A DNA stretch of 29,320 nucleotides from a virus (lineage: Duplodnaviria > Caudoviricetes), in IMG/VR virus record IMGVR_UViG_3300017721_000193, positions 1-29,320 of that record. One strand, 5' to 3'. Every line of letters begins with the position of its first letter. The stretch's first letter is position 1. Positions 23,422 through 25,535 of this stretch are shown one piece after another. Below the pieces are notes generated by a model, which was not told the origin of the DNA, ran no database searches, and saw only the letters and a program-made list of their open reading frames with translations. The position numbers were made by a program, and so were the translations under genes.

Positions 23422-23451
23422 AAAAAGGGGGCGTTAGCCCCCTTATCTTTT
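23420..23451. terminator. Bidirectional intrinsic terminator between convergent arms
   Basis: A7-GGGGGC-GTTA-GCCCCC-TTATCTTTT. Confidence 0.85.
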
Positions 23452-23501
23452 ACATCCCTTGCCTGAGCAAGTACATTCTATCGGTGAGTTTTCACACCAT
23501 T

Positions 23502-23867
23502 CTACTTTAGACGTCCTCTCTTGTCCACGCTTCTTACCGCGAAGTACCCGCCTATCACTGTTACGCTTACCATTTCCCATAGTCCAATCCATCTTTCGCT
23601 TATATTACTAATACCAAAACCTTCAAAAAAAGTCATCAATACTAAGAATATAATTACGGTGGCTAGGGTTAGTGGCCTGACGTTCTTAGATAGCCAAGAG
23701 TCTGAACGCATGTCGCTGTTCCATCTCTTAGATATCTCTTCTTCTACAGCTGCACGAACAGCTTCTTTTTCCTCCGGAGTTTTTACAAATCGGTCCACGA
23801 CATTTGCAACCGCTTCCGCAGTTTCCTGAACAGCTTTGCCTCCTAATATTTTCAATAACTTGCTCAT
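23502..23867 (-). CDS. Holin (GTA 3TM-holin-like)
   Basis: VD.FV.T.EEK, RW.SDM.SDSWLSKNVRPL, two TM segments, GYF..RS..K; start corrected to ATG 23867. Confidence 0.8.
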   Translation of the reverse strand: MSKLLKILGGKAVQETAEAVANVVDRFVKTPEEKEAVRAAVEEEISKRWNSDMRSDSWLSKNVRPLTLATVIIFLVLMTFFEGFGISNISERWIGLWEMVSVTVIGGYFAVRSVDKRGRLK

Positions 23868-23869
23868 AT

Positions 23870-23995
23870 CTAACTCCCACAACCCTCGCAGTCAGGGTTG
23901 TCAATAGAACAAGCATTCGAGTTTTTCTCGCTTGTTGTTAGCTCATCTACGAAATCAGCAAATCCATCTGCTAAATCAAAGTCATTCTTCATCAT
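23870..23995 (-). CDS. 41-aa acidic peptide ending ACSIDNPDCEGCGS (RNR alpha C-terminal tail-like; not in ORF track)
   Basis: MMKNDFDLADGFADFVDELTTSEKNSNACSIDNPDCEGCGS; overlaps amidase stop and ends 2 nt before the holin ATG. Confidence 0.8.
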   Translation of the reverse strand: MMKNDFDLADGFADFVDELTTSEKNSNACSIDNPDCEGCGS

Positions 23996-24470
23996 TCTCC
24001 TCTTCTTCTTTAATTAATAAATCTTTAGTTTCCTTCGGCTCCCATATGAATCCATACTCTTCCTGAACATTAAAGCTAGGACAGGCTTTGTCTGAAAATT
24101 CATTGTGGCCATGCACAGTTGCTGTTGGGTATAACTTCAACAGAGACTTTATAAGATTTGTTAGCGCAACATCCTGAAGCTCGGTTCTAGTATCCTTTGC
24201 TTTTGACATTGTTTTGTTCATACCTCCCACATAAACTACACCGATGCTTCTACGGTTGTATCCCTTAGCGTGAGCTCCTGAATCTTGAACACTTCTTCCT
24301 ACCTCTATCTCTCCATCAAGGCCGATAACATAGTGGTAACCAATAGTGGAGAACCCACGATTTTTATGCCATCTAGTTATTTCATCAACACTAACCTCTC
24401 TGCCTTCAGGCGTTGCGGTTGAGTGTATAATTATCCTGTTAATGTTTCTTGCTGAATTTCTTAATTTCAT
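23982..24470 (-). CDS. Endolysin, N-acetylmuramoyl-L-alanine amidase (T7 lysozyme-like, Amidase_2)
   Basis: IIIHSTATPEG, IGYHYVI, GAH..GYN..SIG..YVGG, GHNEF...KACP zinc-amidase motifs. Confidence 0.93.
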   Translation of the reverse strand: MKLRNSARNINRIIIHSTATPEGREVSVDEITRWHKNRGFSTIGYHYVIGLDGEIEVGRSVQDSGAHAKGYNRRSIGVVYVGGMNKTMSKAKDTRTELQDVALTNLIKSLLKLYPTATVHGHNEFSDKACPSFNVQEEYGFIWEPKETKDLLIKEEEENDEE

Positions 24471-25137: not shown

Positions 25138-25330
25138 CTTTGTCTAGTATTGCTACGATAAAATGCAAGTAGTCTGAAAGCTCTGAGGTGCTGACGTTGA
25201 GTTCATGACCCAAGCCCAATAGTGTGACCGGTCTGTCTTCTTTGACGAGTTTTGATATAGCATAATATATAGATATTATAAAGTCAGCTTCCGAAGATGT
25301 TATCTCTTCGTATGTTAGATTAAGAGCCAT
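25118..25330 (-). CDS. Small protein with HTH-like segment
   Basis: TLLGLGHELNVSTSELSDYL; overlaps sigma-like gene start. Confidence 0.6.
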   Translation of the reverse strand: MALNLTYEEITSSEADFIISIYYAISKLVKEDRPVTLLGLGHELNVSTSELSDYLHFIVAILDKVEEEQI

Positions 25331-25535
25331 AGGGCCTAATTGAACGTGCTTTCTCAGGGTCGAGTTCAGCTATTTTATCTATCATTTCATTCTCTCTTTT
25401 GTACGCTTCAGCGTATTCTTCTGCAGATGAATCAGAACCTAGGTTAGCAAATAGCTTGGCCATCTCAAATAGATATAAGTCCACCCGGTTCTTAATTAAT
25501 TTACAGGTCTTGTAGTTACGGTTGTCTAGTATCAT
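25320..25535 (-). CDS. Hypothetical helical protein
   Basis: 71 aa in tightly packed minus-strand operon. Confidence 0.7.
   Translation of the reverse strand: MILDNRNYKTCKLIKNRVDLYLFEMAKLFANLGSDSSAEEYAEAYKRENEMIDKIAELDPEKARSIRPYGS

Follow-up and report, generated by a model that had tools for sequence, protein, structure and literature searches.

What would a virus gain from a separate gene for a 41-residue peptide that ends like the redox-active C-terminal tail of NrdA, the α subunit of class I ribonucleotide reductase (RNR)? The question is raised by the window analysed here, a stretch of 29,320 nucleotides (a 29.3 kb virus record) that also encodes a terminase, a tape measure protein and a protease. 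As an earlier note on this DNA had reported, a minus-strand ORF of 41 aa, with the sequence described there, is wedged between the endolysin and the holin at 23870-23995. The note regarded the ORF as uncalled, which is true only under a length cut-off, since its product appears as a hypothetical protein in the output of public gene callers. The features of the locus are the following:

23870..23995, minus strand: tail-microprotein gene, 41 aa, acidic (10 D/E, 2 K)
23873..23914, minus strand: three-cysteine tail, residues 28-41, C-x6-C-x2-C-G-S at the C-terminus (the last two cysteines being C36 and C39), resembling the NrdA redox tail
23933..23971, minus strand: predicted acidic amphipathic helix, residues 9-21, F-xx-[FW]-[ILV]-xx-[LM] (AlphaFold2 and conservation)
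23960..23980, minus strand: weak NrdB-like heptad, residues 6-12, lacking in distant members
23982..24470, minus strand: endolysin (N-acetylmuramoyl-L-alanine amidase; Pfam Amidase_2, E 7e-15; PHROG amidase, E 2e-54)
23502..23867, minus strand: holin (phrog_3427; PHROG holin, E 2e-16)
23443..23580, minus strand: another conserved micro-ORF, of 45 aa, basic and with a Cys-rich end, in a different frame from the holin gene, whose 3' end it overlaps
23425..23444, both strands: terminator-like hairpin closing the minus-strand gene run

The peptide gene shares 14 nt with the amidase gene, and its stop lies 2 nt upstream of the holin ATG at 23867. A second ATG at 23992 would give a product of 40 aa, the usual length among close homologues. 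Since the gene stands at the end of a minus-strand run that is followed by a terminator, it is likely to be co-transcribed within that run. Promoter-like sites are at chance level (7, against 6.8 expected). Among four RNA-labelled runs, a contig from one (X1, whose label is a guess) covers holin, peptide and amidase, another (X3) covers the gene partly and two give no cover; such coverage shows presence and cannot show transcription. A relative with a complete genome of 39.6 kb (G008) carries a peptide 98% and an amidase 99% identical to those of the window.

That the window ORF is a genuine gene is clear from its variation. All 92 distinct nucleotide copies keep the coding frame open, while each of the other five frames has stops in 45-92 of them, and variability by codon position is 0.14/0.11/0.38, the third position varying about three times as much as the others. 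Mean pN/pS over the same copies, whose pairs are not independent, is 0.22 (0.16-0.26 by divergence bin). Profile and pattern searches for conservation as a stand-alone ORF, a check that the earlier note had proposed, returned many free-standing homologues: 21 homologue clusters of 38-65 aa, 365 matching stretches in IMG/VR and, among 1.84 billion representatives, 47 proteins at E <= 0.001, of which 45 are shorter than 100 aa. A DNA pattern for the x6 tail alone, run on 118 metagenome loci, matched 115 times, always in ORFs of at most 94 codons from stop to stop and never in an NrdA; with the x7 pattern, IMG/VR yielded 103 short ORFs, one or more of them a cut NrdA end, and 16 NrdAs. The pooled viral loci contain 307 peptides, free or fused to an amidase. 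Among their 148 distinct cores, 93 have x6 and 55 have x7 spacing, and the ending is GS (136), SG (10) or GA (2). The cysteines stand at the extreme C-terminus in all 148, a placement that the search pattern demanded. The expectation that homologues would preserve a terminal C-x6-CxxCGS is thus borne out for the three cysteines, which are invariant in family alignments A4 and A5 (63 and 53 members), but not for spacing and ending, as C-x7 spacing is found in 55 of the 148 cores and an SG or GA ending in 12.

Only two elements are kept across the family, the tail and the amphipathic stretch. Members range from 32 to 56 aa, and the shortest, of 32-33 aa, start at the helix. AlphaFold2 predicts this helix at residues 9-21 (block pLDDT 83) and no secondary structure past residue 26, there with low confidence (pLDDT 53-65). 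Pfam and PHROGs assign no family to the peptide, the ESM Atlas holds just unnamed clusters of 40-42 aa, and in GenBank phages nothing matched over the whole peptide, the hits being confined to the NrdA tail in two records (E 0.1). An attempt to sort the phage variants by host type was rejected as largely circular, being driven by one F/W position.

The likeness to the RNR α tail claimed in the earlier note is well founded, with several kinds of comparison in agreement. The last 14 residues are identical at 13 positions to those of a Cyclobacteriaceae NrdA (P0036). When longer proteins were searched, the first 10 matches were family members fused to other sequence (seven of them to an amidase), and 105 of the 110 non-family matches listed carry the RNR large-subunit domain, with the match at the C-terminus of the protein; because these candidates were picked by shared words, the identity figures for NrdA are partly inflated, but hits of any other kind are nearly lacking. 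A broad family profile run against 401 Bacteroidia genomes matched 182 of them and left 219 without a match. Once the peptide itself is set aside, each of the 29 top-scoring loci is an NrdA C-terminus; of the 184 matches 150 are listed, and nearly all of those lie in ORFs of about 800 aa. Some genome tallies, including this one, contain the unpublished genomes G158 and G244; our claims are independent of both, and one locus from G158 (L276) was excluded from the tail counts. The best sequence match in the PDB is an RNR C-terminus (5im3, E 0.0027), and 37 of 53 family members align to the NCBIfam NrdA model solely over its last ~26 positions. Further, the variants of the peptide parallel those of NrdA tails, in their GS, SG and GA ends as in their x6 or x7 spacing. 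Among 120 Bacteroidia NrdA tails gathered, a set biased to profile matches, 99 have x7 and one has x6 spacing; further NrdAs, 9 of 120, lack the cysteine pair. The first cysteine is absent from some attached tails, and in some a stretch of similar periodicity can be seen by eye ahead of the cysteines.

A second resemblance put forward in the earlier note, between the N-terminal part of the peptide and the NrdB (RNR β) C-terminal docking peptide FTLDADF, is not supported. On a matrix built from 38 Bacteroidia NrdB ends, the heptad of the window subfamily (median) outscores all but 0.08% of background; under a composition control, however, p is 0.09, and its mean of 5.4 bits compares with a minimum of 15.5 bits for real NrdB ends. 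In the window subfamily the heptad is internal rather than C-terminal, and it is absent from distant members of 32-36 aa. As the shortest members start at the helix, a β-like heptad is not a feature of the family. These data bear on whether the peptide could be an inhibitor or regulator of RNR, competing with the attached α tail or with the β tail. Such a role would have precedent, since according to the available text of PMC3483043 β C-terminal heptapeptides such as P7 inhibit class I RNR at low micromolar levels, and the accessible part of PMC11903788 places the α tail and nucleotides in one shared pocket. The window-subfamily heptad, above 99.9% of background, has the corresponding weak F-x-hydrophobic-x-acidic-x-F arrangement at residues 6-12. 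Unlike P7, however, it is internal, not significant once composition is controlled for, and lost in many members; moreover, phages without an RNR depend on the host enzyme, and hosts themselves keep the gene. We therefore consider inhibition very unlikely.

If the peptide acts on an RNR, whose enzyme is it? The earlier note had seen no RNR gene in the window, and none was found among its 25 scanned ORFs, nor in the near-identical complete genome G008. The large subunit (PF02867) was found in none of 25 carrier records (11 of them at least 90% complete) and none of 32 further ones (11 at least 90% complete), while the same test detected it in 8/8 control records, in which the motif belongs to an NrdA tail. 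A search of the 25 for the small subunit was negative throughout. The 57 tested records are the longer ones among several hundred. Carrier records span about 28-95 kb, the largest being a complete 95 kb record, and those listed differ in gene content and order. Five viral records that do encode an RNR, one of them complete, have the attached tail, and no free peptide was seen in them. A split phage RNR was rejected on these counts. As carriers lack an RNR of their own, any RNR partner would be the host's.

Phages did not invent the peptide, since marine Flavobacteriales have the gene in their chromosomes. A free chromosomal copy was found in 11 of 301 genomes from one sampled Bacteroidia order, all 11 being small genomes; two earlier order-level searches, of 68 and 34 genomes, found no free peptide. 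NCBI labels assign the 40-aa type to Schleiferiaceae and the 50-aa type to Flavobacteriales. Single sequences of the Schleiferiaceae type recur on up to 845 contigs, which reach 2.17 Mb, and some metagenome copies stand among bacterial housekeeping genes, which from their sequences, and not from tool labels, we take to be holA, lptB, pyrG and ahcY. Homologues thus occur in host chromosomes as well as in several phage groups that are unrelated to each other, the distribution of an auxiliary gene. The window peptide is identical to the Schleiferiaceae type at 24-25 of 40 positions and to the 50-aa type at 15-17, which points to Flavobacteriales as the probable host of the window phage, a marine virus. 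Cultured relatives do not name the host: of the 15 terminase matches listed none exceeds 27%, and for the putative capsid protein there was no match. Two marker searches for the host lineage returned no close genome. A phage-like contig (L161, G026:C31) lies in a genome bin with several RNR-family matches; it is likely mis-binned and was excluded from the host inference.

In each of the 11 carrier bacteria NrdA ends in a three-cysteine tail of its own. The enzyme is thus complete without the peptide, which is a spare tail rather than one part of a split RNR. A split host RNR was accordingly rejected for the carrier hosts, whose chromosomal peptide gene does not stand beside nrdAB (about 9 kb away in G805, on separate contigs in the other 10). 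The presence of a chromosomal gene in genomes with an intact NrdA also favours a helper over an inhibitor. In all 11 the peptide is C-x6 and the NrdA tail C-x7. Tail-less class I NrdAs, with no C-terminal Cys pair, were found in five genomes of two other orders (G080:C1, G128:C1, G137:C1, G442:C5 and G520:C122; loci L530, L461, L529, L526 and L525), G080 being a single 3.2 Mb contig. No family member was found in these five, with the pattern search covering three of them; a more divergent peptide could escape.

In the window the gene forms part of a lysis cassette, a position that is usually late. The earlier note had suggested expression with the lysis genes. This position is common, but it is not general. 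Among 181 distinct combinations of core and context, 66-68 adjoin an endolysin or holin (two of them resting on manual reading of a family unnamed in PHROGs) and in 35 the peptide is wedged between both, whereas 54 of the 106 cases in which both neighbours are known have neither adjacent. The lysis link may be undercounted, as some unnamed neighbours may be further lysis proteins. In relatives the endolysin type changes while the peptide stays, and in some the endolysin is replaced by non-lysis genes; other neighbours include PhoH-like, GroES-like and methyltransferase genes. Across 63 context types, no alternative partner gene travels with the peptide. Conversely, of 80 loci with a related amidase, seven carry it. 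Amidase-peptide fusions (L152, L181; P0024-P0027, P0030-P0032), one cluster of which has 36 members, were also seen.

This neighbourhood lends some appeal to a different function, in which the microprotein would use its three cysteines to bind metal (Zn, Cu or Fe-S) and would serve as a metal store or donor, perhaps for zinc endolysins. Its acidic character, its place at the endolysin-holin junction in those 35 contexts and the seven protein clusters that are amidase fusions would suit such a peptide. All three of its cysteines are invariant, though the first is lost in some attached NrdA tails, and the role of the first cysteine in human RRM1 is described as disputed in the accessible part of PMC11143221. 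Yet between the cysteines the sequence is nearly the same as in NrdA, residue by residue, which metal binding would not call for. Further, the chromosomal copies and about half of the fully resolved phage contexts have no adjacent lysis gene, just 7/80 related-amidase loci carry the peptide, and most fusions retain an internal Met at the peptide start. Metal binding is in our view quite unlikely.

The second micro-ORF of the window, of 45 aa, ends in W-C-E-xx-P-x-E-C-x-C and is free-standing in some relatives. It gave 130 matches (91 distinct) among the collected loci, and occurs in 7/7 amidase loci with the tail peptide against 0/73 without it; none of 80 W-type subfamily loci has it, so the tail peptide does not require it. 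The window also holds an unnamed 71-aa gene (25320-25535, minus strand), and in several other phage groups (such as L083, L111 and L143) the tail peptide is followed immediately downstream by a protein that, by eye, looks like the product of this gene.

How could a spare tail be of use? In the attached case, the tail is reduced by thioredoxin or glutaredoxin and then reduces the active-site disulfide, as set out in the available portions of PMC11903788, PMC9669993, bioRxiv 2022.04.23.489257 and PMC3483043. According to the accessible text of PMC4078304, the tail must leave and then return at each turnover, reductant supply is proposed to be rate-limiting in vitro, and the reductant TCEP works solely by way of the tail cysteines. 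In the class II enzyme NrdJd, the C-terminal cysteines deliver electrons to another subunit (PMC5704485, available text). We propose, giving it about an even chance, that the free three-cysteine tail docks on host NrdA through its helix and re-reduces the active site in trans. The peptide would be made, host redoxins would reduce its CxxC, and the amphipathic helix would bind NrdA and so substitute for the covalent tether; extra tails could then speed the re-reduction half of the cycle. A gene of 120 nt might in this way raise dNTP supply without the phage carrying an RNR, to the benefit of phages relying on the host enzyme. Slightly less probable than not, and so offered tentatively, is the wider proposal that in abundant marine Flavobacteriales, and in many of the phages that infect them, an intact RNR has a diffusible activator subunit, namely a tail docked by its helix that adds electron shuttles; the phage version would be a 120-nucleotide auxiliary metabolic gene with which RNR-less phages speed host dNTP synthesis. 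The trans-acting RNR role put forward in the earlier note gains from the conserved stand-alone gene, its NrdA tail sequence and the RNR-less carriers; host chromosomes, too, carry the gene.

Several observations argue against the spare-tail reading. Above all, the NrdA of the hosts is already complete, so that any benefit of additional tails has to be assumed. The peptide is C-x6 where the host tail is C-x7, and the gene is unlinked to nrdAB; the five genomes with a tail-less NrdA, the setting in which a free tail would be most useful, have no family member; and the window gene sits in a lysis cassette, a late position as a rule. Alternatively, the peptide might serve redoxins with a target other than RNR, as a small thiol relay, redox buffer or decoy. 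The NrdA tail would then be borrowed as a recognition motif for thioredoxin/glutaredoxin, and electrons would pass to some other partner bound by the helix. In favour of this, host NrdAs keep their tail, the spacing is unlike theirs, the gene is unlinked to nrdAB, the neighbours vary widely over the 63 context types, and in the available text of PMC5704485 the flexible tail is the very part of RNR that redoxins recognise. On the other hand, the end and spacing variants of the peptide mirror those of NrdA tails, the gene is found in RNR-less phages and not in the five RNR-carrying viral records (four of them incomplete), and no alternative partner gene travels with it. A relay separate from RNR consequently seems unlikely to us.

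Compared with known systems, the peptide shares with the NrdA/R1 tail (B. subtilis C695/C698, human RRM1 C779/C787/C790) the C-x(6-7)-C-x2-C motif, placed at the very end of the chain with just two small residues after it, and an identity of up to 13/14 residues; AlphaFold2 models its cysteine segment, at low confidence, as unstructured. It differs in being a separate gene of 32-56 aa with its own start, no catalytic barrel and varying upstream genes, and in having its own conserved amphipathic helix, coexisting with tailed NrdA and riding on RNR-less phages. The split class II pair NrdJa and NrdJb likewise encodes electron-delivering cysteines apart from the catalytic chain, and in the accessible part of PMC5704485 inter-subunit electron delivery is shown for the related NrdJd. 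NrdJb is a folded zinc domain of 150-220 aa, with no detected likeness to the class I tail, that completes a tail-less enzyme, whereas the peptide is a class I tail of 40 aa and the host enzyme is whole. Another relative in kind is phage thioredoxin, as in cyanophage Syn5, a host-derived small redox gene of marine phages which the available text of bioRxiv 2025.10.05.680603 ties to genome replication, the protein raising replication of the phage genome. Unlike it, the peptide has no thioredoxin fold and resembles the redoxin's substrate, one step nearer the RNR active site. The class I tail has so far been described as a covalent, tethered part of the enzyme; in the literature searched, which held few subscription papers and no supplements, we found no description of a free-standing one. 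If the proposal is true, a free, conserved tail beside an intact enzyme would tune RNR turnover in a manner that is new, and phages of abundant marine bacteria would carry an auxiliary metabolic gene so small that length cut-offs miss it. A synthetic reagent of 40 residues would test whether re-reduction limits RNR, as well as the role of the third cysteine. Should one of the other explanations hold, the peptide would still represent a widespread, unannotated redox or metal microprotein family common to hosts and phages.

As to origin, small phages may have acquired the gene from Flavobacteriales hosts. In one genome (G108, L458:5539-5646) a 35-aa ORF duplicates the 3' end of the genome's own nrdA within a tandem duplication, possibly a route by which free tails arise, or possibly an assembly artefact. 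Among the attached tails, the closely similar NrdAs P0268, P0302 and P0345 show degenerate beside lost cysteine tails.
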